DNA from: an uncultured Actinomycetota bacterium
GTDB lineage: Bacteria > Actinomycetota > Actinomycetes > JACCUZ01
DNA: 64,000 nt
Direction of reading: 5' to 3'
NCBI GenBank assembly: GCA_963705885.1
Contig: OY970120.1
Location: forward strand, 3,497,676 to 3,561,675
Shown piece by piece: positions 945-23,471 of the stretch. The position numbers were made by a program, and so were the translations under genes. The notes beneath the pieces are model-generated. The model was not told the DNA's origin and searched no databases. It saw nothing but the letters and a program-made list of their open reading frames with translations. Each line of letters opens with the position of its first letter. Position 1 is the stretch's first letter.

Positions 945-2095
945 GGCGTCCGCCCCCGACGCAGCCCGGTGAACGAGCCCTCCCCGCGCCGCAGCCGCGG
1001 GATGTTCATCGTCAGCAGCAGCGCCACCAGCGTCACGCTCGCGACGCTCGCCACGAGCGGCACCGTGTCGAGGAACGCGACCGCCACCCCGCCGAAGGCC
1101 AGGACCGCCGACCACAGGTACATCACCAGCACCGCGCGCGCGTGGGAGTGCCCGCGCTCCAGGAGGCGGTGGTGCAGGTGCTGCTTGTCGGGGGTGAACG
1201 GTGACCGGCCGGCCGCGGTGCGGCGCACGATCGCGAGGAGCATGTCGAGGAACGGCACGACCATCACGGCGAGCGGCAGCAGCAGCGGGACCAGGGCGGG
1301 CGCGATGTCCGTGCCCACGTCGTTGGGGTTCACCGAGCCGGTCAGCGTGATCGTGGTCGTCGCCAGCAGCAGCCCGATGAGCATCGACCCCGAGTCGCCC
1401 ATGAACACCCGCGCGGGGCTGAAGTTGTGGGGCAGGAACCCGACGCAGACCCCGACGAGCGCTGCCGCGACGACCCCCGCCGTGGTCGCCCGGAGCAGCC
1501 CCTCCTCGACGGTCAGCAGGTAGGAGAAGGCGAAGAACGCCGACGCCGCGATCGCCACGATGCCCGCCGCGAGACCGTCGAGCCCGTCCACGAAGTTCAC
1601 CGCGTTGATCGTCACGACGATCACCAGGATGGTCAGCACCGCGCCCTCGGGAGGGCCGAGCACCACCGCACCGGGCGCCTCGCCGGGCCCCTCGCTGCCC
1701 AGGCCGCCGAAGGGAAGGAACAGCATCTGCACGCCCTGCAGCACCATCACGCCGGCGGCGAGGACCTGGCCCGCGAGCTTGGTGACCGCGTCGAGCTCCC
1801 ACCGGTCGTCGGCGACGCCGAGCAGGCAGATGAGGACCGCACCGGACAGCACCGCGACGATGTCTCGGCTGTTGAGCCGCGGCCCCAGGAAGGGGAGGTT
1901 GTCCGAGACCAGCAGCGCGGCCCCGAAGCCGCCCATCATGGCGATGCCCCCGAGCCGGGGTGTGGGGATCGCGTGCACGTCCCTGTCCCGCACGGGCGTC
2001 ATCGCGCCCCAGCGGAGGGCGATGCGGCGGGCGACGGGGGTGAGCAGGTAGGTGACCGCGGCGGCCACCACCGCGGTGAGCAGGTACTCGCGCAC
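941..2095 (-). CDS. wecA: UDP-GlcNAc:undecaprenyl-phosphate GlcNAc-1-phosphate transferase (WecA/Rfe, glycosyltransferase family 4)
   Basis: 384-aa polytopic membrane protein (MREYLLTAVVAAAVTYLLTPVARRIALRWGAMTPVRDRDVHAIPTPRLGGIAMMGGF...DMLLAIVRRTAAGRSPFTPDKQHLHHRLL). MraY/WecA family motifs. Conserved position next to the atp operon. Confidence 0.8.
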   Translation of the reverse strand: MREYLLTAVVAAAVTYLLTPVARRIALRWGAMTPVRDRDVHAIPTPRLGGIAMMGGFGAALLVSDNLPFLGPRLNSRDIVAVLSGAVLICLLGVADDRWELDAVTKLAGQVLAAGVMVLQGVQMLFLPFGGLGSEGPGEAPGAVVLGPPEGAVLTILVIVVTINAVNFVDGLDGLAAGIVAIAASAFFAFSYLLTVEEGLLRATTAGVVAAALVGVCVGFLPHNFSPARVFMGDSGSMLIGLLLATTTITLTGSVNPNDVGTDIAPALVPLLLPLAVMVVPFLDMLLAIVRRTAAGRSPFTPDKQHLHHRLLERGHSHARAVLVMYLWSAVLAFGGVAVAFLDTVPLVASVASVTLVALLLTMNIPRLRRGEGSFTGLRRGRTP

Positions 2096-2107
2096 GTCTC
2101 TGCCGCG

Positions 2108-3394
2108 TCAGTCCGGACGCGGGTACGCCGGGTGGCGCCCGACCAGGGCGCCGACCGCGTCGGCCACCTCGCCCGCCGCCGAGCCGTCGGCGTCGCGCAC
2201 CGCCCGGCCGATGAGGCTCGCGACCTCCTTCATCGCCGTCTCGGTCATGCCCTGTGTGGTGACCGCCGGTGTGCCCACCCGGATGCCCGACGCCGTCATG
2301 GGCGGCTGCGGGTCGTAGGGGATCGCGTTCTTGTTCAGCGTGATCCTCGCCGCGTCGCAGCGCTGCTCCGCCTCCGCGCCGGTGACCCCGAGGTCCCGCA
2401 GGTCGAGCAGGGCGAGGTGCGTGTCGGTGCCGCCGGACACGGGACGCATGCCCTCGGCCTCGAGGGCGTGCGAGAGCGCCTGGGCGTTGGCGACCACCTG
2501 GTGGGCGTAGTCGCGGTAGGAGGGCTGGAGGCACTCGCGCAGCGCGACCGCCTTCGCCGCCACCGCGTGCATGAGAGGCCCGCCCTGCGAGAACGGGAAC
2601 ACCGCCTTGTCGATGCGCGCCGCCAGCTCGGGCCGGCAGACGACCATCCCGCCGCGGGGCCCGCGCAGCACCTTGTGCGTCGTGAACGTCACCACGTCGG
2701 CGTGCGGGACGGGCGACGGGATCGCGGCGCCGGCGACGAGCCCGATGAAGTGCGCCGCGTCGACCATCAGCCAGGCGCCGACCTCGTCGGCGATCTCGCG
2801 GAACCGGGCGAAGTCGATCAGCCGCGGGTAGGCGGTCGCGCCCGCGATGATCATCTTGGGCCGGTGCTCGAGCGCCAGGTCGCGCACCTCGTCGTAGTCG
2901 ATGAGCTCGGTGTCCCGGCGCACCGTGTAGGGCACCGGCCGGAACCAGGTGCCCGAGAAGCTGACCTTGCTGCCGTGGGTGAGGTGGCCCCCGTGCGGGA
3001 GCGACATGGCCAGCACGGTGTCGCCGGGCTGCACCAGGGCGGCGTAGGCCGCGAGGTTCGCGCTCGCGCCGGAGTGCGGCTGGAGGTTGACGTGGATGTC
3101 GGTGCCGGGCGGCGCGAAGAGCTCCTTGGCCCGCGCGATGCCGATGTCCTCGGCCTTGTCGACCTCCTGGCAACCGCCGTAGTAGCGGCGACCCGGGTAG
3201 CCCTCCGCGTACTTGTTGGACAGCGTGGAGCCGAGCGCGGCCAGCACGGCCGGAGAGGTGAGGTTCTCGCTGGCGATGAGCTGCAGGCCGCTGCGCAACC
3301 GGTCCAGCTCGCCGACCAGCACGTCGGCGATCTCCGGGTCCTCGTCCTGCAGGGCCTGGAAGTCAGGGCCCCAGAACGGCGTGGAGCGGCTCAT
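2108..3394 (-). CDS. glyA: serine hydroxymethyltransferase
   Basis: 428-aa ORF; IASENLTSPAVLAALGSTLSNKYAEGYPGRRYYGGC and TTHKVLRGPRGGMV (PLP-lysine region) are canonical SHMT. Confidence 0.95.
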   Translation of the reverse strand: MSRSTPFWGPDFQALQDEDPEIADVLVGELDRLRSGLQLIASENLTSPAVLAALGSTLSNKYAEGYPGRRYYGGCQEVDKAEDIGIARAKELFAPPGTDIHVNLQPHSGASANLAAYAALVQPGDTVLAMSLPHGGHLTHGSKVSFSGTWFRPVPYTVRRDTELIDYDEVRDLALEHRPKMIIAGATAYPRLIDFARFREIADEVGAWLMVDAAHFIGLVAGAAIPSPVPHADVVTFTTHKVLRGPRGGMVVCRPELAARIDKAVFPFSQGGPLMHAVAAKAVALRECLQPSYRDYAHQVVANAQALSHALEAEGMRPVSGGTDTHLALLDLRDLGVTGAEAEQRCDAARITLNKNAIPYDPQPPMTASGIRVGTPAVTTQGMTETAMKEVASLIGRAVRDADGSAAGEVADAVGALVGRHPAYPRPD

Positions 3395-4059
3395 GACGAG
3401 TCACTGTACGGCTCGGTGAGCAGGTCGGGCGCGACCGCGCGCAGCGTCTCCTCGCCGACCGCCCCCGCCCGCAGCAGGCGCGGCGCCTCGCCGGTGACGT
3501 CGACGATCGTCGAGGGCACCGGCTCGCCCGCCGCTCCCCCGTCGAGGTAGACCGACACGGCCTCCCCGAGCTGGTCCACCGCCTCGTCGGCCGTCGTGGC
3601 CGGCGGGCGGCCGGTGACGTTGGCGCTGCTGACCGCCATCGGCCCGGTGGCCTGCAGCAGCTCGATCGCCACGAGGTGCAGCGGCATCCGCACCGCGACG
3701 GTGCCGCCGGTGTCGCCGAGGTCCCACCGCAGCGACGGCTGGGCCCTGGCCACGAGGGTGAGGCCGCCCGGCCAGAAGGCGTCGACCAGGTCGCGGGCGG
3801 TCTGCGAGAGCCCGGTCGCGATGCCGTCGAGGGTGCGCGGGGAGCCCACGAGCACGGGCACGGGCATGTCACGGCCCCTGCCCTTGGCCGCGATCAGCCC
3901 GGCCACGGCCTCCGGCGAGAACGCGTCCGTGCCCAGCCCGTAGACCGTGTCGGTGGGCAGCACCACCAGCTCGCCGCGGCGGACCGCGTCGGCGGCCTGC
4001 TCGATGCCGACCGGGCGCTCCGAGGGCACCGACATGTCGAAGCGGCGGATCCAGCCCAT
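3391..4059 (-). CDS. tsaC: L-threonylcarbamoyladenylate synthase (TsaC/YrdC type)
   Basis: [47 protein letters not shown]...AVSSANVTGRPPATTADEAV is YrdC/Sua5 domain. ATG at 4059 has a GGGGGGA RBS 6-7 nt upstream; an alternative ATG lies at 4035. Overlaps the glyA start (ATGA). The ORF-track frame extends further upstream as a GC artefact. Confidence 0.8.
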   Translation of the reverse strand: MGWIRRFDMSVPSERPVGIEQAADAVRRGELVVLPTDTVYGLGTDAFSPEAVAGLIAAKGRGRDMPVPVLVGSPRTLDGIATGLSQTARDLVDAFWPGGLTLVARAQPSLRWDLGDTGGTVAVRMPLHLVAIELLQATGPMAVSSANVTGRPPATTADEAVDQLGEAVSVYLDGGAAGEPVPSTIVDVTGEAPRLLRAGAVGEETLRAVAPDLLTEPYSDSS

Positions 4060-4889
4060 CAGCGATCCCCCCGCACCGCGGTGACGAAGCGGTCGCGCCC
4101 CGCGAGGTCCGTGTGGTCGCGGATGCCGGTCCACCGCCCGGCCGCGACGAACACCGCCGGCGCCGCCTCGCCCTGCAGGTCCGCGTGCTCGACCACGACG
4201 AGACCTCCTGCCCGGAGCAGCCGGGCGGCGACCCGCTCGACCACCCGCACCGCGTCCAGCCCGTCCTCGCCCGACCACAGCGCAGCCGGGGGGTCGTGCT
4301 CCACCACTTCGGCGTCGCGGATCAGGGCGCCGACCGGGATGTAGGGCGGGTTGCTCACGACGACGTCGACCGAGCCGTCGAGCTCGCGGAAGGCACCGGC
4401 CATGTCGCCGCACACGAGGTCCACCGAGGTCCCCGCGCAGTTGCGGACCGCCCACGCGTGGGCTCGTGGGTCGGCCTCGACGGCGTGCACCGCGGCGGCC
4501 GGCACCTCCTGGGCGACGGACAGCGCGATCGCCCCGGACCCGGTGCAGAGGTCGACGACCACCGGTGCCGGCAGGTCGCGCGCGGCGGCGACGGCCGCCT
4601 CGGCCACCACCTCTGTCTCGGGACGCGGCACGAACACGCCGGGCCCGACCTCGAGCGTCAGGTGCCGGAAGTGCGCCCTGCCGGTGATGTGCTGGAGCGG
4701 CTCCCGGCCGGCCCGCCTCGCGACGTACGCCTCGAACTGCTCGCCGGGGTGGTCGTGGCGCCACAGCTCGCGCCGGTCGACGCCCAGCGAGAGGGCGGCG
4801 AGCTCCTCGGCGTCGAACCGCGGCGAGGGCACTCCCGCCTCGGTCAGCCGGTGGGTGGCCGACGCGATGCCCTCGCGCAGCCGGCTCAT
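4059..4889 (-). CDS. prmC: release factor glutamine N5-methyltransferase PrmC (HemK)
   Basis: 276 aa starting [15 protein letters not shown], with [13 protein letters not shown] (SAM motif) and VVSNPPYIP (NPPY). Overlaps the prfA stop (ATGA). Confidence 0.85.
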
Positions 4890-5956
4890 CGCGCCGAGGC
4901 CAGCTTGGCCTCGGTGTCCGCGTCGACGAGCGCCTGCACCACCGCGTCGAGGTCGCCGTCGAGGACCTGGTCGAGGTTGTGCGACTTGTAGTTCACCCGG
5001 TGGTCGGCGATGCGGTTCTCGGGGAAGTTGTAGGTCCGCACCCGCTCCGACCGGTCGACGGTGCGCACCTGGCTGCGCCGGGCGTCGGAGGCCTCCTGGT
5101 CGGCCTCCTCCTGGGCCGCGGCGAGCAGTCGGGCCCGCAGGATGCGCATCGCCTGCTCGCGGTTCTGCAGCTGGGACTTCTCGTTCTGGCAGGACGCCAC
5201 GACGCCGGTCGGGACGTGGGTGATCCGCACGGCCGAGTCGGTGGTGTTCACGCTCTGACCGCCGGGACCGGACGAGCGGTAGACGTCGATGCGCAGGTCG
5301 TTCGGGTCGATCGCGACGTCGACCTCCTCGGCCTCGGGCAGCACGAGCACCCCCGCGGCGCTGGTGTGGATGCGGCCCTGCGACTCGGTGACCGGGACGC
5401 GCTGCACACGATGCACCCCGCCCTCGTACTTCAGCCGCGCCCACACCCCGTGGCCTGGCGGGGGCGTGCCGCGGGACTTCACCGCGAGCTGGACGTCCTT
5501 GTAGCCGCCCATGTCGGTCTCGGTGGCCTCGAGGACCTCGGTCCGCCAGCCGACCCGCTCGGCGTAGCGCAGGTACATGCGCAGCAGGTCGCCCGCGAAC
5601 AGCGCGGACTCCTCGCCGCCCTCCCCCGCCTTGATCTCGACGATGACGTCCTTGTCGTCGTTCTCGTCGCGGGGCAGCAGGAGCATCCGCAGGCGCTCCT
5701 CCAGCTCGGCGCGGCGTGCCTCCATGACCGGCACCTCGGCCCGGAACGACTCGTCCTCGGTCGCGAGCTCGCGCGCCGTGGCGAGGTCCGCGGCCAGCAC
5801 CTGCAGGGCACGGTGCGCCTCGACCACGGGAGTCAGGGCGGCGTAGCGCTTGCCGAGCGCCCGGGCGCGCGCCTGGTCGCCGTGGACGGCGGGGTCGGCG
5901 AGCTCGACCTCGAGCCGTGCGTGCTCGGCGAGCAGCTCGGCCGGTGCCTCCAGCAC
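4886..5956 (-). CDS. prfA: peptide chain release factor 1
   Basis: GGQ motif ([26 protein letters not shown]). GTG start ([15 protein letters not shown]) preceded by GGAGAGGAG RBS. Confidence 0.9.
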
Positions 5957-6052
5957 GGCTGGCTCCTCTCCGTGACGACCCGCGACATGACGAACGACGA
6001 CAACGGCGCCGGCCCGCACCCGTGGGGGTGCGCGACCGACGCCGGTACCGAG

Positions 6053-6268
6053 CTACTTGCTGCCGGACTTGCCGAAGCGCTTCTCGAACCGGGCGACGCG
6101 GCCGCCGGTGTCGAGGATCTTCTGCTTGCCGGTGTAGAAGGGGTGGCACTGCGAGCAGACCTCGGCGTGGATGACGCCGTTCTTCGCGGTGCTGCGCGTC
6201 GTGAACGTGTTGCCACAGCTGCAGGTGGCTGTCGTCTCGACGTACTCCGGGTGGATGTCGGGCTTCAC
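6053..6268 (-). CDS. rpmE: 50S ribosomal protein L31 (Zn-ribbon C+ form)
   Basis: 71 aa: [69 protein letters not shown] start with AGGAG RBS. Confidence 0.9.
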
Positions 6269-6357
6269 TGGTGATCTCCTCGTGGTGTCGGTCGCCGGGT
6301 CGCCGGGCCTCGGACGGCAGGCGTGAACCGGAACCAGCGCGCCAGTCTGCCAGAGAC

Positions 6358-6389
6358 CGGGGCCTCCCTCACAACCCGACGGAGGCCCC
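6358..6389 (-). terminator. 9-bp perfect inverted repeat (GGGGCCTCC-n14-GGAGGCCCC) overlapping the stop of the HAD gene; candidate intrinsic terminator of the accessory operon, upstream of the rpmE promoter
   Basis: Inverted repeat read directly from the sequence; GC-rich stem, weak U tract. Confidence 0.35.
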
Positions 6390-7109
6390 ACGGTGTTCCC
6401 GCGCCGCGGGCAGGAGCGACAGGAGCAGCCCGGTGGCGGCGGCGAAGGAGCCGACCGTCCGCCAGGGCCGGTGGGGACCGTCCGGCTCGGCCGCGTACTC
6501 CCCGGTGAGGACACGCACCGGGTGGATGCCCACCGCCAGCGCCCCGGCCACGTCCTTGGCCGGCCGGTCGCCGACGTGGACGACCTGGCCCGCCGGCAGC
6601 CCCAGCAGGTCCAGGGCGCGGCGGAACGGCGCGGGGTGGGGCTTGCGCAGCGCGCGGCCGGCGGCCCCGTCGGCGACCAGCTCGTCGGAGACGACCACGG
6701 CCTGGAGCAGGCCACGGACGCCGAGCGCGTCGAGCTTGGCGTGCTGGATGCGGGGGTTGCCGTCCGTGACGCACACGACGGGCGCCCGGGCGGCGAGCGC
6801 GCTCAGCGCGTCGACCACGCCGGGGTACGGCGCGAGGCGCGACGGTGCGTGCCCCGCGAACGCGTCGACCAGGTCGGGCACGTGCCCGGCGGGGCCGCCC
6901 AGTTCGGCGAGCGCCCGGTCGATGATGCCGCCCCGGTCGGACCCGGCCGCGGCGGCCCGGTGCAGCGCCGCCAGCAGCTCGTCCTCGGGGAGCCCCAGCA
7001 GGCCCCCGCGGGCGGCGACCGCCCGCCAGGCGCCGGCCAGCCAGCGCTCCTGCGGGAACAGCGTGTCGTCCAGGTCGACGGTGACGCCCCGGACCGGAGC
7101 GCCGGTCAC
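6369..7109 (-). CDS. HAD-superfamily hydrolase/phosphatase
   Basis: [11 protein letters not shown] (DxD nucleophile motif) plus a C-terminal [11 protein letters not shown] motif. GTG start overlaps the wecB stop (GTGA). Confidence 0.7.
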
Positions 7110-8263
7110 CGGGCGGGCCCGGCGAGGGCCGGGGTCGGCTGCTGCCCGAGGCCGGGCTCGCGCGGGGCGAGCAGGTCGCGCACGGCCGGCTCGTCGAGCA
7201 CCTCGACGACCCGGTCGGCCGTGTGCCCGTCGCCGTAGGGGCAGGGCAGGCCGGCGACCCGCGCCAGGGCCGCGGGGTCGGTGAGCGCGTCGGCGGCCGC
7301 GAGCACCCGGTCGCGGTCGAGCCCGGTGAGGACCGCCGCCCCGCTGCGGACGCCCTCCCACCGCGGTGTCGTCGTGCGCATCACGACGACCGGGACGCCG
7401 AGCCAGGACGCCTCCTCCTGCAGCCCGCCGCTGTCGGTCACGGCCACCCGGCTCGCAGCCAGGGCCGCCAGCAGCGCGGGGTAGGGCAGCGGGTCGGTGC
7501 AGGTCACGCCTGGGGCGGCCGACAGGTCTGCGAGCAGGTCCTGCTCGGCGAGCCGGGCCCGGGTCCGCGGGTGCAGCGGGAAGAGCACGGGCCCGTGGCG
7601 CTCGCCGAGGTCCGCGACGAGCCGGGTCAGCTCCCGCAGCCGCACCGGGTCGTCGACGTTGGTGGCGCGGTGCGCCGTGACGAGCACGCCCCGTCGGTCG
7701 GCCGGCGGGACGGCCGGGACGCCGCGCAGGCGCAGCGTGTCGATGACGGGGTTGCCCACCACGCGCACCCGCTCGGCCGGGACCCCCTCGTCGGCCAGGA
7801 ACCGCGCGGCCAGGTCCGTCGGCGCGAGGTGCAGTGTCGCCAGGGCCGCGACCATCCGGCGGTTGCTCTCCTCCATCGAGGTCTCGTTGAATGACCGCAG
7901 GCCCGCCTCGAGGTGGGCCACCCCGACCCCGTGACGGCGGGCCGCCATGGCCATCAGAGGCGCGGTCCAGGTGTCGCCGAGCACGAGCACGAGGTCCGGC
8001 CGGTTCTCCCCGACCTCCTGGAAGGAGCGCGCGAGCAGCGCACCGACCCGCTCCCCCTCGGTCCCGGCCAGCTCCCAGACGGCGTCGGGTGCGAGCCCGA
8101 GGTCGGCGAACACCTGGCCGTACATCCCGGCGTCGACGTGTTGCCCGGTCGCGACGCACCGCACCCGGTGACCGCGGGCACGCAGGGCGCCGACGACGCC
8201 GGCCAGCTTGATGACCTCGGGCCTGGTCCCCACCGGGACCGTGATCCGCAGCGGCTGCGTCAT
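7106..8263 (-). CDS. wecB: UDP-N-acetylglucosamine 2-epimerase (non-hydrolysing)
   Basis: MTQPLRITVPVGTRPEVIKLAGVV...HLEAGLRSFN...VVGNPVIDTL are epimerase motifs. ATG overlaps the stop of the upstream ATP-grasp gene (ATGA). Confidence 0.85.
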   Translation of the reverse strand: MTQPLRITVPVGTRPEVIKLAGVVGALRARGHRVRCVATGQHVDAGMYGQVFADLGLAPDAVWELAGTEGERVGALLARSFQEVGENRPDLVLVLGDTWTAPLMAMAARRHGVGVAHLEAGLRSFNETSMEESNRRMVAALATLHLAPTDLAARFLADEGVPAERVRVVGNPVIDTLRLRGVPAVPPADRRGVLVTAHRATNVDDPVRLRELTRLVADLGERHGPVLFPLHPRTRARLAEQDLLADLSAAPGVTCTDPLPYPALLAALAASRVAVTDSGGLQEEASWLGVPVVVMRTTTPRWEGVRSGAAVLTGLDRDRVLAAADALTDPAALARVAGLPCPYGDGHTADRVVEVLDEPAVRDLLAPREPGLGQQPTPALAGPAR

Positions 8264-9756
8264 CCCTCGAAGACCTCGCTGAAGTGGCGCATCATCCGCA
8301 CCCCGGGTCGGGCGACGAGCCGCTCGGCACGCAGCGGCAGCCCCAGCACCGCCCGGAGGTACTCCTCCACCAGGTCCGCGCCGGAGGCGAGGCTGAGCGG
8401 CAGCCCGCCGGAGAACCTCGGGTTGACCTCGAGCACGACGACGCTGCCGTCGTCCTGCACGAACCCCTGCACGTTGGCCGGTCCGGTGATCTCCACGGCC
8501 TTCAGGGTCAGTGCCACGACGTTGGCGACCTCGTCGTGGAGGAACGTCTCGCCCAGGGTGGAGATGCCACCTCGGGTCGCGAGCCGCCACCGGGCCGCCG
8601 CGCCGGCGAGGTTGCCCGAGGGCCCGACCAGTGCGTCGCAGGTGAACTCGCGACCGGTCATCATGGTCTGGACGATCGGGTCGGGCACCACGCGCAGGGC
8701 GCTGGCCAGCTGCGCCCGCGTGGAGGCGGTCACCACGTCGCGCGAGCCGCGTCCGAAGCGGGGCTTGACGACCCACGGCCCCGGCACGCCCTCTGCGCTG
8801 CCGAGGCCGGTCGCGGGCGTCGGCACCCCGCTCGCCGCGAGGACGGTGTGGAACCGCCACTTGTCGGTGCAGCTCTCGACCGCGTCGAGGCTCGGGAACA
8901 TCGTGGCGACGCCGGCCTCCTCGAGGTAGTCCGCAGCAGGGACCAGCGCGGCGTACTCCTCGGCCACGGTGCAGACGATCGCCCTCGCCCTCGACACGGT
9001 CGCGAACCGCAGCAGCGCGGCGACGTACTGCGGGTCGGTGCGCATCGGCACGACGTGGTGCTCGTCGGCGAGGCGGAGCCCGACGGCCGACGGGTCGGCG
9101 TCGACGGCGAGGACGTGGTGCCCTCGCCCCCGCAGGGCGCGGATCACGGCCACACCGGCCGGGCCGCCCGCCCCCGTGACGAGGACCCGGACCGGGGACA
9201 GGCGCTCGGGGTCGGGGAGCGGCTCGTGCCGCTGTGCCGGCGCCGGGTCGGCGTCAGCAGGCTCGTGGACGTGGTCCTTGCGCGTGCGGAACTCCTCGGC
9301 CCGCGCCGGGTCCAGCGACGGCGGAGGGACGGCGCCGGCGACCCCGGGGAGCATCGGCGCCGTGGCCCCGCCGTTGCGGAGCTCTGGATGCTTCTCGGTG
9401 TGCGCCCGTGCCCACAGCCGGAGCTCGACGACGGCGCCGGTCGAGGCCGGCTCCCACTGCCGGCTCGCCACGGTGCGCACGACTGCGGACAGGACGGCGG
9501 GGTCGGACTCGGACCGGACCGCGCGCAGCAGCGCGGGTGCCGTGGAGGCCAGCCCCATCTCGCCGGCCTGCAGGACCGCCACCTCCCGGACCGCCGGGTC
9601 CGGGTCGCGGAGCCCCGCCGTCACGCCACGGCGCACGCGCAGGAGCCGGGCGAGCCGCCAGCACGCCGCGACCAGCAGTGCCGTGATGGCCACGAGCAGC
9701 GCGATGCCCAGGACCAGCGACTGCTGCTGGTCCGTCGTCACCGCGAGAACGTCCAC
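8260..9756 (-). CDS. membrane-anchored ATP-grasp ligase (N-terminal TM helix + HEAT-like repeats + C-terminal ATP-grasp/carboxylate-amine ligase fold)
   Basis: 498 aa from GTG (VDVLAVTTDQQQSLVLGIALLVAITALLVAACWRLARLL forms the TM anchor). REVAVLQAGEMGLASTAPALLRAV looks HEAT-like. C-terminal half (VRVLVTGAGGPAGVAVIRAL...VVKPRFGRGSRDVV...VVLEVNPRFSGG) has an ATP-grasp fold. GGAG RBS upstream of the GTG. Confidence 0.6.
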   Translation of the reverse strand: MDVLAVTTDQQQSLVLGIALLVAITALLVAACWRLARLLRVRRGVTAGLRDPDPAVREVAVLQAGEMGLASTAPALLRAVRSESDPAVLSAVVRTVASRQWEPASTGAVVELRLWARAHTEKHPELRNGGATAPMLPGVAGAVPPPSLDPARAEEFRTRKDHVHEPADADPAPAQRHEPLPDPERLSPVRVLVTGAGGPAGVAVIRALRGRGHHVLAVDADPSAVGLRLADEHHVVPMRTDPQYVAALLRFATVSRARAIVCTVAEEYAALVPAADYLEEAGVATMFPSLDAVESCTDKWRFHTVLAASGVPTPATGLGSAEGVPGPWVVKPRFGRGSRDVVTASTRAQLASALRVVPDPIVQTMMTGREFTCDALVGPSGNLAGAAARWRLATRGGISTLGETFLHDEVANVVALTLKAVEITGPANVQGFVQDDGSVVVLEVNPRFSGGLPLSLASGADLVEEYLRAVLGLPLRAERLVARPGVRMMRHFSEVFEG

Positions 9757-9788
9757 ACTGCTCCATTCGGATGAACAGGACGTCGCCT

Positions 9789-10325
9789 TTAGAGGACGTC
9801 GCTCACTCGGGCCGCTCGCGGCATGGGCGCCGTCGCGGTGGGGAGGAGGAGGTAGAGCATCAGGAAGAAGCCGACCAGCGTGTAGGCCAGGGCGAAGAAG
9901 GTGCCGATCCAGTCGTGGAAGAGCACGAGTGCGCCGCCGCCGAGCTCGTAGCCCGCCCACAGCGACATCGTGATGCGCAGCACGTTGCAGGCGAGGACCA
10001 GCGCGGCCGCGACCCCGACGGCGAACAGCCGCCGCGGCCAGGGCCCGGACAGGATGAAGAACCCTATGCAGGCGAGGGCGAGCACGGGGATCACCGCGGA
10101 GCAGTACGGCGTGAGCTGCGCCCGGAAGGCCTCCTGGTCCGGTGGCAGCAGCTGGAAGAACGTCTCGTTCACCACCGAGGCGCGGCCGCCGAACGGGCTC
10201 AGCAGGCCCATCACGAGCTCGGACTCGAGGCGGCGGACCGGGGCGTTGAGCAGGCGGAAGCCGCCCAGCGCCACCGCCAGCGCCAGGCCGAGGAAGCCGA
10301 AGACGACGAAGCGGCGCCGCGTCAT
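9789..10325 (-). CDS. exosortase/archaeosortase-family protein, short Gram-positive type (XrtG-like)
   Basis: 178-aa polytopic membrane protein with motifs of the exosortase family: Cys in LTPYCSAVIPV, N-x-x-R in LACNVLRITMSLW, downstream LFHDWIGTFFAL. ATG overlaps the GT2 stop (ATGA). Always-adjacent GT2 matches the XrtG neighbourhood as I recall it. Confidence 0.5.
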   Translation of the reverse strand: MTRRRFVVFGFLGLALAVALGGFRLLNAPVRRLESELVMGLLSPFGGRASVVNETFFQLLPPDQEAFRAQLTPYCSAVIPVLALACIGFFILSGPWPRRLFAVGVAAALVLACNVLRITMSLWAGYELGGGALVLFHDWIGTFFALAYTLVGFFLMLYLLLPTATAPMPRAARVSDVL

Positions 10326-11713
10326 CCGTGCACCCCCGCACCCGCCGGGCCTTCGGCACCCTCCAGTGCCGACCACGAGGAGCGGGCGGTCTTGACCCAC
10401 GCGTAGCGACGCCCGAGCAGGCCGTCCACCCACGCCTTGGTGCACACGAGCATGAACACGACGAAGATCGGGGTCATCCAGGCGATCGACCAGGCCGAGC
10501 GCCGGGGCGCCCTGCCGACCATCAGCCCGACCGCCAGCTCGCAGAAGGGGCCGGCGAAGAGCAGCGCGGCCAGCGGCAGCATCTCGAACAGCGTGACCTG
10601 CGGGCCGAGCCCGCCGATGCGCAGCACCGTCATCAGCAGCGTGACCGTGCACAGCACGGGCACGTGGTAGACGAGCAGGAAGAGCATCGTCTCGACCTTC
10701 TCCAGCGGGGCGAGCCGGGTGCTGCTCAGCACGTGCCGGCGGTAGTCGCGCCAGACCTGCTGGTGGCCGCGCGCCCAGCGGTAGCGCTGCTTGACGAACC
10801 GCCCGAGGGTCGTGGCCCCCTCCTCGGTGTCGACCGCAGTGATGTCGTAGCGCACCCGGTCACCCCGGAGCACGACCCGCAGCGTCAGGTCCGTGTCCTC
10901 GGTGACGCTGTCGACGTTCCAGCCGCCCAGCGCGCGCAGCGTGCTGGCCCGCACGGCGCAGTTGGCCCCGCCGTACGCCGGCAGCTCGAACAGCGCCTGA
11001 CGGCCGTACTCGTTGACGAGGTAGCCGGAGAAGTAGTCGATCGCGATCGACCGGGCCAGCTTCGACTGGATGGAGTTGCGCACGATGCACCGGCCCTGCA
11101 CGGCCGACACGCGGGGGTCCTGGAAGTGCCGGACCAGCCGCTCCACGACGTTGCGGCGGGGGATGTGGTCGGCGTCGAAGATCACGATGATCTCACCGCG
11201 GGCGATCGCCGCGGCGTCGTTGAGGGCGCCCGACTTCCCGCCGCCGGCACCCGCCGGCCGGTTGAGCACCGTGATGTGCCGCTCGCCGGCCGTCAACGAC
11301 GCGAGCAGCTCGCCGGTCCCGTCGGTGGACGCGTCGTCGACGAGGATGATCTCCAGCCGCGACCGCGGGTAGTGCAGCGCCCGCAGACCCCGCACGAGGT
11401 TGTCTGCGACCAGCGCCTCGTTGTGGCAGGCGACCAGGACCGACACGTTCGGGCGGTAGGCCAGGTCGACCTCCGCGACGTCGTAGAGGTCGCGCGGTGC
11501 CCAGCGCACCGCGGCTGAGGCGAACGCGACGTGGCGCAGGAAGAAGACGAGGAACGCGAGGTTGACCAGCACCGACGCGGTGATGATGGCCCGGTCGACG
11601 CCGGCGACGGCGACGAGAAGCGCTCCCGCACCGACGATCCACAGGAAGGTCCAGGGGGCGGCGTCGGCCTTCGCCCCGCTCGACGTGACGGTGGCGGTGT
11701 GCGCGGTGCTCAC
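10322..11713 (-). CDS. processive family-2 glycosyltransferase (cellulose/chitin/PNAG-synthase-like, membrane-embedded)
   Basis: N- and C-terminal TM helices flank a GT-A core with DDASTDGT, FDADH (DxD), VTEDTD and QRYRWARG (Q-x-x-R-W), the signature of processive beta-glycan synthases. GTG start overlaps the PIG-L stop. Confidence 0.75.
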   Translation of the reverse strand: MSTAHTATVTSSGAKADAAPWTFLWIVGAGALLVAVAGVDRAIITASVLVNLAFLVFFLRHVAFASAAVRWAPRDLYDVAEVDLAYRPNVSVLVACHNEALVADNLVRGLRALHYPRSRLEIILVDDASTDGTGELLASLTAGERHITVLNRPAGAGGGKSGALNDAAAIARGEIIVIFDADHIPRRNVVERLVRHFQDPRVSAVQGRCIVRNSIQSKLARSIAIDYFSGYLVNEYGRQALFELPAYGGANCAVRASTLRALGGWNVDSVTEDTDLTLRVVLRGDRVRYDITAVDTEEGATTLGRFVKQRYRWARGHQQVWRDYRRHVLSSTRLAPLEKVETMLFLLVYHVPVLCTVTLLMTVLRIGGLGPQVTLFEMLPLAALLFAGPFCELAVGLMVGRAPRRSAWSIAWMTPIFVVFMLVCTKAWVDGLLGRRYAWVKTARSSWSALEGAEGPAGAGVHG

Positions 11714-12435
11714 GGCAGGAGGCGCGTCAGGCCGGTGTTTCCGGACGGCTCCGCAGCGTCGGCGGCGTCGGCGGCCTCACGCTCCAGCTCCAGCAGCTCG
11801 TCGTCGATCTGGCGCGACGAGGACCCGTGGCCGATGTCCCACACGAAGCGCGGGCTCTCGAACGCCTCGGCGTAGCCCACCTTGGCGCGCGACCCCCAGT
11901 AGCGTGCGCCCACCTCGACGGCGTCCAGGTCGACCATCGGGCACTGCATCACCTGCGACCAGTGAGCCCGCAGCGCGGCGAGCTTGCCGGAGAGCGTCTG
12001 GTCGACCTCGACGAACACGGTCGGGTCGAACGAGGTGGTCGACGGCGACTGGTAGAAGAGGACGCGGGCCAGCCGTCGCCCCGCCGCGAGCGCGGCCTGC
12101 GAGGTCGCGACGTGGTCCTGGTGCGTGTCGTGCGGCGCGTGAGCGTAGATCACGTCGGCGCCCACCCGGGCGACGACCTCGTCAAGGGCGGCCACCGCTT
12201 CGGGGCCGTTGGTCACCCGACCGTCGCTGAAGGGGCCCCAGACCAGGTTCGCGCCGATGACCGCGGCGGCGGCCTCCTGCTCGCGGACGCGCGTGGTGAG
12301 CCCCTGCGGCCCGTGCTCGCCCGGCGTCATGACGAGCATCGTCACCTCGTCGCCGGCCGCGACGTGGCGGAGCAGCGCACCCGCGCAGCCGAGCTCGATG
12401 TCGTCGGGGTGGGCCCCGATCGCCAGCACCTTCAC
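11710..12435 (-). CDS. PIG-L/LmbE-family N-acetylglucosaminyl deacetylase
   Basis: VKVLAIGAHPDDIELGCAG...HDTHQDH are the Zn-binding motifs of the LmbE/PIG-L family. GTG start overlaps the stop of the upstream paralog (GTGA). Confidence 0.8.
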   Translation of the reverse strand: MKVLAIGAHPDDIELGCAGALLRHVAAGDEVTMLVMTPGEHGPQGLTTRVREQEAAAAVIGANLVWGPFSDGRVTNGPEAVAALDEVVARVGADVIYAHAPHDTHQDHVATSQAALAAGRRLARVLFYQSPSTTSFDPTVFVEVDQTLSGKLAALRAHWSQVMQCPMVDLDAVEVGARYWGSRAKVGYAEAFESPRFVWDIGHGSSSRQIDDELLELEREAADAADAAEPSGNTGLTRLLP

Positions 12436-12971
12436 GGCGTCACCACCAGGCGGCGGGGACGCGCGACGACCACGAGCAGGCCCGTCACGACAACGGCCAG
12501 GACGCCGAGGAGCAGCGCTCCGACGTTACCCACCTGCGACACCGGCTTCGTCGCACATCGGCGCAGGTCCTCCACCTCGTCGTCGTCGATCTCGACCTCG
12601 GCGGTCCGGTTGCCCAGGCGCCAGGACATCTCCTCGCTGCCCGAGGTCGTCACGAACGCGTTCGTGTGCCGCCCGGGGGCGAACACCGTGGGCTGACCCT
12701 GGTCGTCCCCCCCGGGTGACACCCGGTTGTGGCTTCCCACTGCGACGACGGCGGTGTCCGAGGTCGGGTTGTCCCAGCCCCAGACGATCGTGGTCGACCC
12801 CGTTCCGTTGCGCCAGTAGCACTCCGCCACCGGCTGCAGCTGCTTGCAGGTGCCCGAGCCCATGGGCGGGCACTCCACCATCGCCGCCGAGGCCGGGCGC
12901 GCGAGGAGGGCCGTCACGCCCATCAGCACCAGGACGATGACGACGGCGACGCGAGGCAGCAGGGCTGTCAC
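12432..12971 (-). CDS. small secreted protein, paralog B, with C-terminal tripartite sorting-signal-like region (KPVSQVGN + TM helix + RPRR)
   Basis: N-terminal signal peptide (…LLARPASA|AM). Mature ~110-aa Thr/Val-rich domain with conserved DDxGQPTVFxPG. C-terminus CATKPVSQVGNVGALLLGVLAVVVTGLLVVVARPRRLVVTP. Clear paralog of the adjacent upstream gene. Confidence 0.6.
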   Translation of the reverse strand: MTALLPRVAVVIVLVLMGVTALLARPASAAMVECPPMGSGTCKQLQPVAECYWRNGTGSTTIVWGWDNPTSDTAVVAVGSHNRVSPGGDDQGQPTVFAPGRHTNAFVTTSGSEEMSWRLGNRTAEVEIDDDEVEDLRRCATKPVSQVGNVGALLLGVLAVVVTGLLVVVARPRRLVVTP

Positions 12972-13507
12972 GCGGGCGCCCGACCAGTGCGACGACCGGG
13001 GCGCCCGGACAAGGCCAGCGCCCCCGCGACCGTGACGACGGCAGCGAAGGCCAGGACCGCGAGCGCGTTGCCCTCGGCCGGCACGGGCTTCTCGGAGCAG
13101 CTGGTGACGGAGGCCGCAAGCTGCACCTTGTTCCCGGTCAGCTCCCAGTCCGCACCCTTGTCGATGTCGCGCATCGTGACGGTGGGGGCCCAGACGTTGC
13201 GGCGGGTGCCCGGCAGGAAGACGGTCGGCTGTCCGAGGTCGTCCTTGACAGCCGCTGCGACGTTCGTGACCTTGTTCTCCCCGCCGACGGGCACCGTGAC
13301 CGTCGTGGCGTTCGTGCTCGTGACCCCGATGCTGACAGTGACCGTCCCGTCAGCGTTGAGGAAGTAGCAGTCGACGAACGGAGTCAGCGACTTCTTCGCG
13401 GCGTCGGCGGCAGACGCTCCGGGGGCCCAGAGCACCCCCAGGAGGGCGATCGCGAGCGCGGCGACGACCAGCCGAGCCGTCCGCGCGAGAACCAACGAGA
13501 CCCGCAT
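12968..13507 (-). CDS. small secreted protein, paralog A, with C-terminal tripartite sorting-signal-like region (KPVPAEGN + TM helix + RPGRR)
   Basis: Signal peptide (…LWAPGASA|AD). Shares CY(F/W)xNxxG(T/S)xT, DDxGQPTVFxPG, LxGN(K/R), C(S/A)xKPVxxxGN with paralog B. C-terminus [43 protein letters not shown]. Strong GGAGGA RBS. First gene of the operon. Confidence 0.6.
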
Positions 13508-13609: not shown

Positions 13610-13635
13610 GCCTGATCGGTGTAGCCCGATCAGGC
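13610..13635 (-). terminator. 10-bp perfect inverted repeat (GCCTGATCGG-tgtagc-CCGATCAGGC) 20 nt downstream of the rho stop; candidate terminator/attenuator between rho and the accessory operon
   Basis: Inverted repeat seen in the sequence; no U-tract. Confidence 0.3.
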
Positions 13636-13654
13636 GACGTCTGGGGGCAGGAGG

Positions 13655-15474
13655 TCAGTCCTCGTCGCTGCCGTTGCCGTTGCCGTTGCCAGGCACCGGC
13701 ATCGTCTGCTGGACCTGCATGAGGAACTCGGCGTTGCTCTTGGTCTTCTTCATCCGGTCGAGCAGCAGCTCGAGCGCCTGCTGGGTCTCCAGCGCGTGCA
13801 GCACGCGGCGCAGCTTCCAGGTGATCTGGAGCTCCTCGCGCGGCATGAGGATCTCCTCCTTGCGGGTGCCCGACGGGTCGACGTCGACGGCCGGGAAGAT
13901 CCGCTTGTCCGCGAGCTTGCGGTCGAGCTTGAGCTCCATGTTGCCGGTGCCCTTGAACTCCTCGAAGATCACCTCGTCCATGCGGGACCCGGTCTCGACC
14001 AGGGCGGTGGCGAGGATGGTCAGCGACCCGCCGTTCTCGATGTTGCGCGCCGCGCCGAAGAACCGCTTCGGCGGGTAGAGCGCCGTGGAGTCGACGCCTC
14101 CGGAGAGGATCCGGCCGCTGGCCGGTGCCGCGAGGTTGTACGCGCGGCCCAGCCGGGTGATCGAGTCGAGCAGGACCACCACGTCGTGACCCAGCTCGAC
14201 AAGACGCTTGGCACGCTCGATGGCGAGCTCGGCGACCATCGTGTGGTCCTCGGCCGGCCGGTCGAAGGTCGAGGCGATGACCTCGCCCTTCACCGACCGC
14301 TGCATGTCGGTGACCTCCTCCGGACGCTCGTCGACGAGCACGACCATGAGGTGGGTCTCGGGGTTGTTCTGGGTGATCGCGTTGGCGATCGCCTGCAGCA
14401 CCATCGTCTTGCCGGCCTTGGGCGGGGAGACGATCAGGCCACGCTGGCCCTTGCCGATCGGCGCCACGAGGTCGATGACCCGGGTCGTCAGCACGCTCGG
14501 GTCGGTCTCGAGCCGCAGCCGATCCTGCGGGTACAGCGGGGTCAGCTTGGTGAACTCCACCCGGCTGCGCGCCTGGTCGGGCTCGGCGCCGTTGACGGAG
14601 TCGAGGCGGACCAGCGCGTTGAACTTCTCCTTGCGCTCGCCCTCGTGCGGCTGTCGCACCGCGCCCGTGATCGCGTCGCCCTTGCGCAGCCCGCTGTTGC
14701 GGACCTGGGCGAGCGACACGTAGACGTCGTTGGGACCGGGCAGGTAGCCCGACGTCCGCACGAAGGCGTAGTTGTCGAGGATGTCGAGGATGCCGGCCAC
14801 CGGGACGAGGACGTCGTCCTCGCTGATCTCCGGGAGCGCGCCGTCGGCGTCGCCGGGCAGGCCGTCGCGGCCCCCGCGCCGGTTGCGGTTGCGGTCGCGG
14901 TAGCGCCCGCGCCGACGGCCGCGCCCACCGCGGCCGTCCTCGTCGTCGTCGCCGTCGCGCGGGCCCTGCTGCCGGTCGCCCTGCGGCCGGTCGCCCTGCG
15001 GCCGGTCGCCCTGCGGCCGGTCTGCTGCTGCTGCCGGTCGCCCTGCTGCCGGTCGCCCTGCTGCCGGTCGCCCTGCTGCCGGTCGCCCTGCGGCCGGTCC
15101 CGCTGCTGCCGGTCGCGCTGCGGGCGGTCGCGCTGCGGCCGGTCGCCCTCCTGCTGCTCGCCGCGCTGCTCCCGGGACGGCTGCTCCGCGGGCGCCGCGG
15201 TCTCGGCCGCCGGCGGCGACGCCTGTGCCGGGGCACCGGAGCCGCCGGACTGGCGCTCCTTGATGGCCTCGATGAGCTGGCCCTTGCGCATGCGCCCCGT
15301 GCCGCTGATGCCCAGCTCGGAGGCGAGCCCCTGGAGCTCGGCCAGGACCATGCCGGAGAGGCCGCCACCCGCCTTGCGCGCGGGCTTTCGGGCGGGCTTG
15401 GTCTCGGCCGTCCCGCCGTCGGCGGGCGCGTCCAGGAGTTCTGTGCTGTCGGACACTGACTGGTCCTTCCTCAT
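13655..15474 (-). CDS. rho: transcription termination factor Rho, with an apparent +2/-1 frameshift inside the RD/QG-rich repeat linker (~15017-15033)
   Basis: N-terminus ([21 protein letters not shown]...[37 protein letters not shown], Rho_N domain) is in the frame of ORF 14542..15828. RNA-binding and ATPase body (…[17 protein letters not shown]…[22 protein letters not shown]…) is in the frame of ORF 13655..15799. The frames meet at an irregular 17-nt unit (ccggtctgctgctgctg) within otherwise 15-nt tandem repeats (ccggtcgccctgc[g/t]g = [10 protein letters not shown]). Confidence 0.8.
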
Positions 15475-15856: not shown

Positions 15857-16762
15857 TCAGCCCGGGGTCACCCGTGCCTGCGCCCCGGCCCGGTCGATCG
15901 CCGGCCGATGGGTCGTCCAGCCCTCGGGCGCCTCGAGCCCGACAGGCTCCCCCGTGGTCAGGACCAGCACGCTGGGCCCGGCCCCGGAGACCGTGGCGGC
16001 CAGGCCCGAGGACCGCAGCCGTGTGACCAGTTCCGCCGTCGCCGGCATCGCGGCGGCCCGGTAGGCCTGGTGGAGCCGGTCCTCCGTCGCCGCCAGCAAC
16101 AGGTCAGGGCGTCGCGTCATGGCCTCGACGAGGAGGGCGGCCCTCCCCGCGGAGTGCGCGGCGTCGGCGTGCGGGACGGTGGCGGGCAGCAGCGCCCGCG
16201 CCGTGGAGGTCGACAGCTCCTCCTCAGGCACGAGCACCGCGACGCCCACCTCCGGCGACGGCTCGATGCGCGCCGCGTGCGCGGCGCCCCCGTCCGTCCA
16301 CGCGACGGTCAGCCCGCCCATCAGGGCGGCGGCGGCGTTGTCCGGGTGACCCTCGATCGCGCTCGCCAGGGCGAGCACGGCCTGCTCGTCCCGCTCCGCC
16401 GCGGCCAGCGCGCGACCGGCGAGGACCCCGGCCACCGCGGCGGCGGCGGAGGACCCCAGACCGCGCGCCTGCGGGACCCGGTTGGAGCACCAGATCGTCA
16501 GCGGCGCCCGCGGCAGGGCGAGGGCGTCGAGCGCTGCGTGGACCGCACGGACCACCAGGTGCGAGCCGTCGCGCGGGACGCTCGCGGCACCCTCGCCCTC
16601 GACGTGCACGGTGACCGGCGGTGCGGAGCCCGGCTCGACGCGGACGCGCACGTCGTCGTAGATCGCGAGCGCGAGGCCGAGCGAGTCGTAGCCGGGCCCG
16701 AGGTTGGCACTGGTGGCGGGGACCCGGACCGAGACCTCCGTCCCGGGTGCCAGGGTCACGAC
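15857..16762 (-). CDS. thrB: homoserine kinase
   Basis: [36 protein letters not shown] kinase motifs. GTG start chosen by homology; it overlaps the thrC 3' end. Confidence 0.8.
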
Positions 16763-17820
16763 CGGAGGCCGAGCGCGGCCGCTGCGGCCGGCGCGTCGGC
16801 GGGCACGGTGTCGCTGCGCACGTCCAGGCGCGAGAGCGCCGTCTCGGTGTCCTTGAGGCCGTTGCCGGTGACGGTGCACACGACCAGCTGGCCGGGCTCG
16901 AGCTCTCCCCGCTCGTGACACTGCAGCAGGCCGGCCACGGACGCGGCGCTGGCCGGCTCGACGAAGACCCCCTCGCGCGCCGAGAGCAGCCGTTGCGCGT
17001 CGAGGATCCGGTCGTCGCTCACGGCGTCGATGCGGCCCTTGGACTCCTCGCGGGCGGTCACCGCTCCGTCCCAGGACGCCGGGTCACCGATCCGGATGGC
17101 GGTGGCGACGGTGTCCGGGTTCGCCACGGGAGACCCGAGCACGAGCGGGGCGGCGCCCTCGGCCTGGAACCCCCACATCCGGGGGTGGGCGCACAGCCCG
17201 TCCGCCGCGTACTCGACGTAGCCCTTCCAGTACGCGGTGATGTTGCCCGCGTTGCCGACGGGCAGGCAGTGGACGTCCGGCGCCCGGCCCAGCACGTCGA
17301 CGACCTCGAACGCGGCGGTCTTCTGGCCCTCGATGCGGAACGGGTTCACCGAGTTCACCAGCGACACGGGGTAGAGGTCGGCGAGATCGCGGGCGAGTCG
17401 CAGGCACTCGTCGAAGCCGCCCTCGACCTGCAGCAGCCGCGCGTCGTGCACGAGCGCCTGGGCCATCTTCCCCGCCGCGATCCGGCCGTGGGGGACGAGG
17501 ACCACGCACTCCAGGCCGGCCTTCACGGCGTAGGCCGCGGCGGACGCGCTCGTGTTGCCCGTCGACGCGCAGATCACCGCGCCGACGGCTTCGCTCGCGG
17601 CCGAGGAGATCGCCACCGTCATGCCCCGGTCCTTGAACGAGCCGGTGGGGTTGGCCCCCTCGACCTTGAGGTGCACCTCGCACCCCGTCAGCCCGGAGAG
17701 GTGCCCGGCCCGGACCAGGGGGGTGCCGCCCTCGCCCAGGGTCACGACCGGCACGTCCGGGCCCAGCGGGAGCCGCGCCGCGTACTCGGCGACGACACCC
17801 CGCCAGAGCCGGGCGGTCAC
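16756..17820 (-). CDS. thrC: threonine synthase
   Basis: 354 aa; [23 protein letters not shown] is the PLP-lysine motif of threonine synthase. Confidence 0.9.
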
Positions 17821-23398: not shown

Positions 23399-23471
23399 GC
23401 CCCCGTAGCTCAGGGGATAGAGCACCGCCCTCCGGAGGCGGTGGCGTAGGTTCGAATCCTACCGGGGGCGC
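23399..23471 (+). tRNA. tRNA-Arg (anticodon CCG)
   Basis: GCCCCCG acceptor stem, GTAGCTCAGGGGATAGAGCA D-arm, anticodon loop CTCCGGA (CCG), T-arm GGTTCGAATCC, 3' CGGGGGC; cloverleaf folds by eye. Confidence 0.8.

Follow-up and report, generated by a model that had tools for sequence, protein, structure and literature searches.

A candidate exosortase-type sorting cassette with small tail-bearing secreted proteins and putative acceptor-building enzymes in Actinomycetota

The nearest known arrangement to the locus reported here is the XrtG system of Firmicutes. Our locus is an eight-gene cassette between rho and rpmE of an uncultured Actinomycetota bacterium (assembly GCA_963705885.1, contig OY970120.1; the window, meaning the whole stretch of DNA analyzed, is 64,000 nucleotides long). 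A complete XrtG system was described from L. plantarum in a 2026 paper and comprises a Firmicu-CTERM protein, XrtG, and two glycosyltransferases (PMC12854382). A Gram-positive exosortase encoded next to its own target is therefore an already known pattern, and the statement in a sequence-only reading of this DNA that XrtG lacks identified targets is outdated, since Firmicu-CTERM is such a target. The present cassette shares with the XrtG system a Gram-positive host, a small number of targets, and a small exosortase adjoining both a glycosyltransferase family 2 (GT2) protein and its own tail-bearing target (here a candidate). What differs is the exosortase clade, the signal, the host phylum, and a module of PIG-L, ATP-grasp, WecB, and HAD genes with fusions between the exosortase-like protein (hereafter Xrt) and ATP-grasp; moreover, the enzyme, its partner glycosyltransferase, and the tails fall outside the XrtG, TIGR03111, and Firmicu-CTERM models, respectively. 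On balance, we favor the view that the cassette is a dedicated exosortase-type sorting system of Actinomycetota, whose acceptor would be built by the co-encoded enzymes.

Other described systems share single features with this cassette. Systems of the PEP-CTERM/XrtA (EpsH) type are alike in enzyme family, in a tripartite signal with a proline-containing motif, and in being located in glycan-biosynthesis loci, which also encode a deacetylase and an amide-forming FemAB-like aminoacyl transferase. However, XrtA has ~8 transmembrane (TM) helices, serves many targets per genome, and occurs in diderm hosts; the CE4 deacetylase and FemAB-like ligase of its loci have no homology to the PIG-L and ATP-grasp proteins here, and the PEP-CTERM signature has no match in the tails described below. 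Archaeosortase A (ArtA), which acts on PGF-CTERM proteins, is a homologous enzyme in which Cys173 and Arg214, 41 residues apart, are essential (PMC9263693), and the spacing of 42 between Cys75 and Arg117 in Xrt matches it. An amine-bearing acceptor is implicated for ArtA as well (lipid attachment; PssA/PssD homologs), but the host is archaeal, the acceptor is a lipid, the motif is different, and no glycan enzymes are co-encoded. By analogy, the closest chemical precedent for what we propose would be the linking sugar of type IX secretion (T9SS), whose cargo is joined through an amide bond to a sugar with a 2-N-seryl or 2-N-glycyl group, produced by the deacetylase VimE and then the aminoacyl transferase VimA (PMC7468200). 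In T. forsythia this sugar is manno-configured and the pathway includes a predicted epimerase, and XrtA loci carry homologs of both VimE and VimA (PMC7468200). The logic of the T9SS (PorU with the Wbp/Vim linking sugar) resembles our proposal, namely to deacetylate, aminoacylate, and amide-link a protein C-terminus, whereas its sortase PorU is unrelated, VimE is a CE4 enzyme, VimA is GNAT/FemAB-like, and the host is diderm. The resemblance would thus be a functional analogy only, with PIG-L and ATP-grasp as non-homologous analogues.

The cassette occupies positions 6369-13507 of the window on the minus strand, in the interval from rho to rpmE, and consists of eight co-directional genes, listed here in order of transcription:

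12968-13507, minus strand: parA, 179 aa
12432-12971, minus strand: parB, 179 aa
11710-12435, minus strand: PIG-L/LmbE-family de-N-acetylase, 241 aa
10322-11713, minus strand: GT2, 463 aa, with QRYRW
9789-10325, minus strand: Xrt-like mini-exosortase, 178 aa
8260-9756, minus strand: ATP-grasp ligase, 498 aa, with an N-terminal TM helix
7106-8263, minus strand: WecB/MnaA, 385 aa
6369-7109, minus strand: HAD-superfamily phosphatase, 246 aa, with a DLDDT motif, the last gene in the unit

Start and stop codons overlap by 4 nt at six of the seven gene junctions (GTGA four times and ATGA twice), and the junction from xrt to the ATP-grasp gene is a 32-nt spacer containing GGAG. The sequence-only reading had already noted a co-directional minus-strand unit with mostly 4-nt GTGA/ATGA overlaps, and both observations stand; its count of nine genes does not, as there are eight and rpmE lies outside. 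An Rfam L31-Actinobacteria ribosomal protein leader (RF03158; 6290-6337, minus strand; 51 bits, gathering score 35) is located between the HAD stop codon and the rpmE start. Since rpmE has its own leader, it is regulated separately, and the unit ends at the HAD gene. A public independent gene call for the identical contig gave the same products and lengths, except for a shorter PIG-L start.

The 178-aa Xrt protein very probably belongs to the exosortase/archaeosortase family, as had been claimed: it scored above the cutoffs of TIGR04178 (40.6 bits, cutoff 23) and PF09721 (29.6 bits, cutoff 25.7), and the Cys, Arg, and His residues expected of the family are conserved in alignments. These three residues, nearly invariant in exosortases, are the suspected catalytic triad (Haft). 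In Xrt they lie in the motifs TPYCSAV, ACNVLRI, and FHDWIG, and C75 (TPYCS), N114, R117 (CNVLRI), and H137 (LFHDW) were invariant among 29 close homologs. At 90% identity, the close relatives grouped into 147 clusters; almost all have 177-178 aa, and where the source names an organism, it is Sporichthyaceae, Acidothermus, Frankiales, or Actinomycetota. Among 1.84 billion representatives, a profile search yielded 305 wider relatives, 183 of them with E ≤1e-10; organism names, where given, were Acidimicrobiia and Nanopelagicales. Among 81 such relatives with 26-44% identity, R117 and H137 were invariant and C75 was at least 90% conserved.

No named subfamily model was reached by Xrt. The label "XrtG-like" in the sequence-only reading has to be given up, with 13.8 bits against a cutoff of 102.75 for XrtG (TIGR03110), and XrtP was likewise distant (19.5 vs 200 bits). 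The nearest named subfamily was XrtS (NF033767), in which residues 3-153 of 155 align with residues 11-158 of Xrt, but the score of 51.1 bits was far below the cutoff of 145. XrtS and the other mini-exosortases (XrtP, XrtR, XrtX, and XrtK) have a similar size (~155-180 aa) and the same core; a literature search on XrtS or "exosortase S" found nothing relevant. Of the 81 wider relatives, 80 passed TIGR04178, whereas none approached the XrtS cutoff (best E = 9.5e-15). On these profile scores, Xrt and its wider relatives therefore constitute a distinct exosortase clade without a subfamily name, separate from XrtS. The AlphaFold2 model of Xrt (predicted local distance difference test, pLDDT, 87; predicted template modeling score 0.80) shows four long helices and a beta-hairpin, and no solved structure resembled the protein. 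Hydropathy and positive-inside charge predict four TM helices with both termini inside and with C75, R117, and H137 toward the outer face.

The candidate substrates, ParA and ParB, each consist of a Sec-type signal peptide and a mature domain of ~100 aa with an invariant Cys near each end, followed by a C-terminal tail. The ParA signal peptide ends in ASA/AD and its mature domain has two invariant Cys, and the mature part of ParB has four Cys. Their mature parts are ~32% identical (BLASTP E = 7e-13), and neither protein has a match in Pfam or NCBIfam. The predicted fold is an immunoglobulin (Ig)-like beta-sandwich (pLDDT 84), which in structural comparison matches only generic Ig or fibronectin type III (FN3) domains. 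Both tails are tripartite:

12971-13099, minus strand: parA tail, with the motif from C137, a hydrophobic helix, and GRPGRRTGR
12435-12557, minus strand: parB tail, from C139, with CATKPVSQVGN, a hydrophobic helix, and RPRR

The consensus is C-x-[ST]-K-P-V-P-x-x-G-N, then a TM helix and an Arg cluster. Among all open reading frames (ORFs) of at least 60 aa in the window, a search for this pattern with a hydrophobic stretch matched ParA and ParB only.

We collected par homologs using a profile of the mature domains only and obtained 84 clusters, with named organisms from Acidothermaceae, Acidothermus, or Frankiales; one marginal match labeled Longimicrobiales (E = 5e-5) was without the tail. 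The Cys of the tail was found in all 84 clusters, and the following K, P, V, and P in 76, 83, 81, and 75. After this came [VI]-x-[GAS]-[NS], ~18-20 hydrophobic residues, and an Arg cluster. The K, P, and V were at least 90% conserved against a mean column identity of 36%, and outside the tail the proteins were ~25-35% identical, so that in this alignment no part of the par family is better conserved than the tail. The tail also travels with the xrt gene: one to three par genes stand directly upstream of the PIG-L gene in most of 30 related loci, although an adjacent par gene is missing from four. In the cultured Acidothermaceae bacterium B102 (AP028633.1), the operon-adjacent par is accompanied by two remote copies, at 1.56 and 5.21 Mb, that keep the tail, and in the Acidothermus metagenome-assembled genome (MAG) JAIMAI01, whose cassette has no room for par, one tail-bearing copy lies on another contig. 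The sequence-only reading had proposed the tripartite tails of the two paralogs as sorting signals, and family-wide conservation bears this out. The conserved attributes of the tail are those that Haft lists for tripartite sorting signals and dedicated systems, and we regard ParA and ParB as likely exosortase substrates.

Beside the cassettes of the wider clade we found at least five mutually unrelated groups of secreted proteins with [VILM]-P-x(1-2)-G-x-x-G, a TM helix, and an Arg cluster; as a background, the motif precedes only 7.4% of the TM-plus-basic segments of comparable kind that this DNA encodes. One such locus, L070, has four neighboring secreted-protein genes with a C-terminal TM helix and Arg tail at 1432-7702, including one protein of 525 aa and a Ser/Pro/Ala-rich one of 373 aa, which hints that one enzyme serves many substrates in some lineages. 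Five tails taken as representatives matched no NCBIfam CTERM model with the E limit set at 10, a threshold at which HMMER filters may still drop very weak hits.

The PIG-L, GT2, Xrt, ATP-grasp, WecB, and HAD genes were colinear in 30 of 30 related species-level genomes, in most of them between rho and rpmE, and the cassette is a vertically inherited trait of the lineage, not a recent insertion. Wider-clade loci from metagenomes (GC 63-75%) retain GT2, Xrt, ATP-grasp, WecB, and HAD; PIG-L is mostly a direct neighbor, but in some cases it is inverted or follows HAD. In six long-read MAG loci from MFD (L008, L009, L012, L027, L028, and L030), several cassette genes, par, GT2, and xrt among them, appear split over frames, more likely through sequencing indels than because they are pseudogenes.

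Xrt is fused to its neighbors in several wider relatives. Single-chain fusions were found in P0260, P0271, P0275, P0302, P0309, and P0311, each a separate representative at 50% identity. Their chains run from the Xrt domain through a conserved linker (ERAEQD..GRHTARRP..WARPGLGYR) and a HEAT-like segment to the ATP-grasp domain, with no extra TM helix. The separate ATP-grasp protein of the window shares the fusion-type HEAT-like segment (..DPAVLSAVVRTVASRQWEP..LRLWA), which there follows an anchor of its own. Because that anchor is N-out/C-in and the fusions have no extra TM helix, the ligase domain is predicted to be cytoplasmic in both arrangements. Checked in the DNA with reading frames taken into account, most wider-clade loci have separate genes, and DNA-level verification of fusions covered two contigs, L084 (9809-13450, plus strand) and L092 (85-3261, plus strand), both from fen/peat metagenomes. 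In each, one uninterrupted ORF encodes Xrt, ATP-grasp, and WecB, with a frame of 1213 codons in L084. Of the new evidence that the exosortase would work together with the ligase and the epimerase, these fusions are the strongest part; our literature search found no paper linking exosortases with ATP-grasp enzymes.

Two further observations concern these proteins. Residues 169-178 of Xrt (window 9792-9821, minus strand) form a cytoplasmic C-terminal tail, PRAARVSDVL, that is invariant across the narrow clade. Fused relatives have the linker ERAEQD..GRHTARRP in its place, and the tail may serve as the peptide by which Xrt docks onto the ATP-grasp protein at its HEAT-like segment. In addition, some stand-alone Xrt-like proteins of ~176-194 aa (P0005, P0086, P0107, P0108, P0117, P0219, and P0220) bear the JGI/IMG name "carbamoyl-phosphate synthase large subunit", which is probably a misannotation transferred from Xrt/ATP-grasp fusions.

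Profile matches agreed with the identities previously given for the PIG-L, GT2 (QxxRW), ATP-grasp, WecB, and HAD proteins. The PIG-L protein has AHPDD and HxDH motifs and matches PF02585 at 86 bits; it falls below the thiol-pathway deacetylase equivalogs BshB1 (89.7 vs 182.5 bits) and MshB (17.9 vs 224 bits) and is thus assigned at the superfamily level only. Among solved structures it is closest to TT1542, diacetylchitobiose deacetylase, and BshB1, and neither a TM helix nor a signal peptide is predicted, which would place it in the cytoplasm. The GT2 protein is membrane-integrated and of the cellulose-synthase-like/PgaC type, with two N-terminal and three C-terminal predicted TM helices. Pfam GT2 models and relatives in the PDB support this general membership (nearest structures 6yv7, BcsA, and hyaluronan synthase), whereas the scores were far below cutoff for the PgaC/IcaA synthase of poly-N-acetylglucosamine (PNAG; TIGR03937, 127.7 vs 422.3 bits), the XrtP-associated glycosyltransferase (78 vs 520 bits), and the XrtG-associated GT2 that had been proposed for comparison (TIGR03111, 56.2 vs 363.95 bits). 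The ATP-grasp protein matches PF15632, PF02655, and PF13646 and is PRK12767-like, below cutoff; its nearest solved structure is the uncharacterized 2pn1, and its predicted topology is an N-out/C-in TM anchor at residues 14-32, the HEAT-like segment, and a cytoplasmic ATP-grasp domain. WecB reaches the equivalog level (TIGR00236, 252.5 bits vs a cutoff of 210.15; also PF02350) and, by this profile, is the non-hydrolyzing UDP-GlcNAc 2-epimerase, which makes UDP-ManNAc. The HAD protein matches PF00702 and PF13419, and TIGR02253 below cutoff (85 vs 170).

From the enzyme family assignments, the topology predictions, synteny, the Xrt/ATP-grasp(/WecB) fusions, and the conservation and distribution of the tail, we infer a course of events that comprises cleavage, transpeptidation, an order of enzymatic steps, and an acceptor identity. 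ParA and ParB would leave the cytoplasm through Sec and fold into small Ig-like domains braced by disulfides, and the C-terminal helix and the Arg cluster would keep them in the membrane for a time. The four-TM mini-exosortase, with C75, R117, and H137 at the outer face, would recognize the juxtamembrane K-P-V-P-x-x-G-N, cleave at or near it, and pass the C-terminus thus formed to an acceptor that bears an amine. This acceptor would be built at the cytoplasmic face: WecB would supply UDP-ManNAc, and PIG-L would take off the N-acetyl group and expose the sugar amine. The membrane-tethered, Xrt-coupled ATP-grasp enzyme would then form an amide on that amine, most simply with an amino acid that has a free alpha-amine. 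HAD would remove a phosphate, and the synthase-like GT2 would assemble and/or export the glycoconjugate. Since PIG-L lacks an export signal and the ATP-grasp domain is predicted to lie in the cytoplasm, the acceptor precursor would be prepared inside the cell, before export.

An aminoacylated or amine sugar is our tentative suggestion for the acceptor. A bolder and rather speculative extension is that the cassette encodes a self-contained glycoconjugate-anchoring pathway in monoderm Actinomycetota, with a logic loosely like that of glycosylphosphatidylinositol (GPI) anchoring. Here a ManNAc-derived sugar, de-N-acetylated by PIG-L, aminoacylated or otherwise amidated by the Xrt-tethered ATP-grasp enzyme, and exported by GT2, would be the nucleophile that accepts the cleaved protein C-terminus.

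Several points weigh against a dedicated sorting system. The ATP-grasp, PIG-L, and GT2 proteins have only distant characterized relatives, some of the protein-level fusions derive from short assemblies, and the [VILM]-P-x-G motif of the wider clade is short and was defined after looking. The tail-bearing proteins of the narrow clade are all homologous, so the tail could have been inherited with the domain. Furthermore, the invariant tail Cys probably closes a disulfide with the N-terminal Cys, and part of the motif may therefore belong to the structural end of the Ig-like domain, not to a recognition element. The last two points, together with the four loci that have no adjacent par gene, would also fit an ordinary stop-transfer anchor: ParA and ParB would stay in the membrane as type-I proteins, for instance serving GT2 as accessory subunits outside the cytoplasm (compare the small partners of PNAG synthase), and Xrt would act elsewhere. 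We consider this unlikely because K-P-V-P is conserved more strongly than the domain preceding it, the tail is retained in remote paralogs, and a related motif recurs at the same position in unrelated secreted proteins beside wider-clade cassettes; in addition, an enzyme with conserved Cys, Arg, and His is always present, and its family is known only for processing such tails. The fusions of Xrt to the cytoplasmic ATP-grasp and WecB proteins, and a GT2-Xrt-ATP-grasp-WecB-HAD core that is more constant than the adjacent par genes, could instead mean that Xrt is a membrane scaffold or glycan-handling subunit of a glycopolymer machine made of GT2, ATP-grasp, and WecB, with sorting not its main role. 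Such a role seems rather improbable to us, as the Cys, Arg, and His positions of catalytic exosortases are kept clade-wide and proteins with tripartite tails, candidates for substrates, are repeatedly found next to the cassette, and the fusions are equally consistent with a coupling of acceptor synthesis to transfer.

The chemistry of the sequence-only reading, in which an XrtG-type enzyme links the proteins to a poly-HexNAc polymer deacetylated by PIG-L, can be weighed in the same way. It accords with the GT2 protein, which among named families is most similar to PgaC/IcaA, and with the presence of both a deacetylase and an amide-forming ligase. However, the enzyme is not XrtG, WecB points to a ManNAc-derived unit, and neither PIG-L, without an export signal, nor the cytoplasmic ATP-grasp domain can reach an extruded polymer. 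PNAG systems, moreover, employ secreted CE4 deacetylases instead of PIG-L. We therefore regard this version as quite doubtful. Least credible, and in our view very improbable, is that the adjacency of Xrt is coincidental and the tails are processed by some other enzyme, for instance a class E/F sortase or a "myxosortase" of the Rce1-like kind. The tail of one subclass does come near the cutoff of the LPXTG-anchor model (15.4 vs 15.9), and in other phyla myxosortases handle tripartite signals that contain Cys. Yet that alignment is limited to the TM and Arg part, the tails have no LPXTG or LAXTG motif and show K-P-V-P-x-x-G in the tally, the cassette encodes no such protease, and the adjacency of Xrt is conserved across clades. 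A dedicated sorting system with ParA and ParB as its candidate substrates remains the reading that we prefer.

The cassette sits inserted within a conserved housekeeping region. Downstream, the usual actinobacterial block of rpmE, prfA, prmC, and a Sua5/TsaC-like gene extends over window positions 3391-6019 (minus strand), and thrB is found upstream of rho at 15857-16921. GC at third codon positions (GC3) is 0.90-0.97 across all eight operon genes and alike in rho and rpmE. Recent horizontal acquisition was considered and ruled out, since GC and GC3 match those of the neighbors and the position between rho and rpmE is common to most related genomes. Just past the rho stop codon, at ~13620-13650 (minus strand), an inverted repeat with perfectly matching 9-bp arms, CCTGATCGG-GCTACA-CCGATCAGG, lacks a T-run and may be a terminator of rho or an attenuator ahead of the parA Shine-Dalgarno sequence (GGAGGAG). 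The N-terminal part of the rho ORF (~14700-15250, minus strand) is interrupted by a long insertion of low complexity, made up of repeats of PAAGR and of a further sequence together with an RGG-rich stretch, as in other actinobacterial Rho proteins. A tRNA gene lies at 23399-23470 on the plus strand (Rfam RF00005, 69 bits).

The present system may make it possible to identify the acceptor of bacterial exosortases. The cassette is compact, its eight genes comprising the enzyme, two small single-domain candidate substrates, and a few acceptor-building candidates; its host has a single membrane; and at least one cultured genome, that of Acidothermaceae bacterium B102, carries the system. In addition, the natural fusions of Xrt to an ATP-dependent amide ligase and a UDP-GlcNAc 2-epimerase lead to a concrete hypothesis on acceptor chemistry. 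To the catalogue of C-terminal sorting, this study adds an exosortase clade, a candidate signal with the motif K-P-V-P-x-x-G-N, or in its broader form [VILM]-P-x-G, and a family of small surface proteins of Ig-like fold, and it places an exosortase-type system in high-GC Gram-positive bacteria of soil and peat. If the GPI-like pathway were true, the fusions would show that exosortases are physically coupled to acceptor synthesis, and the sugar would be the first identified acceptor class of a bacterial exosortase.

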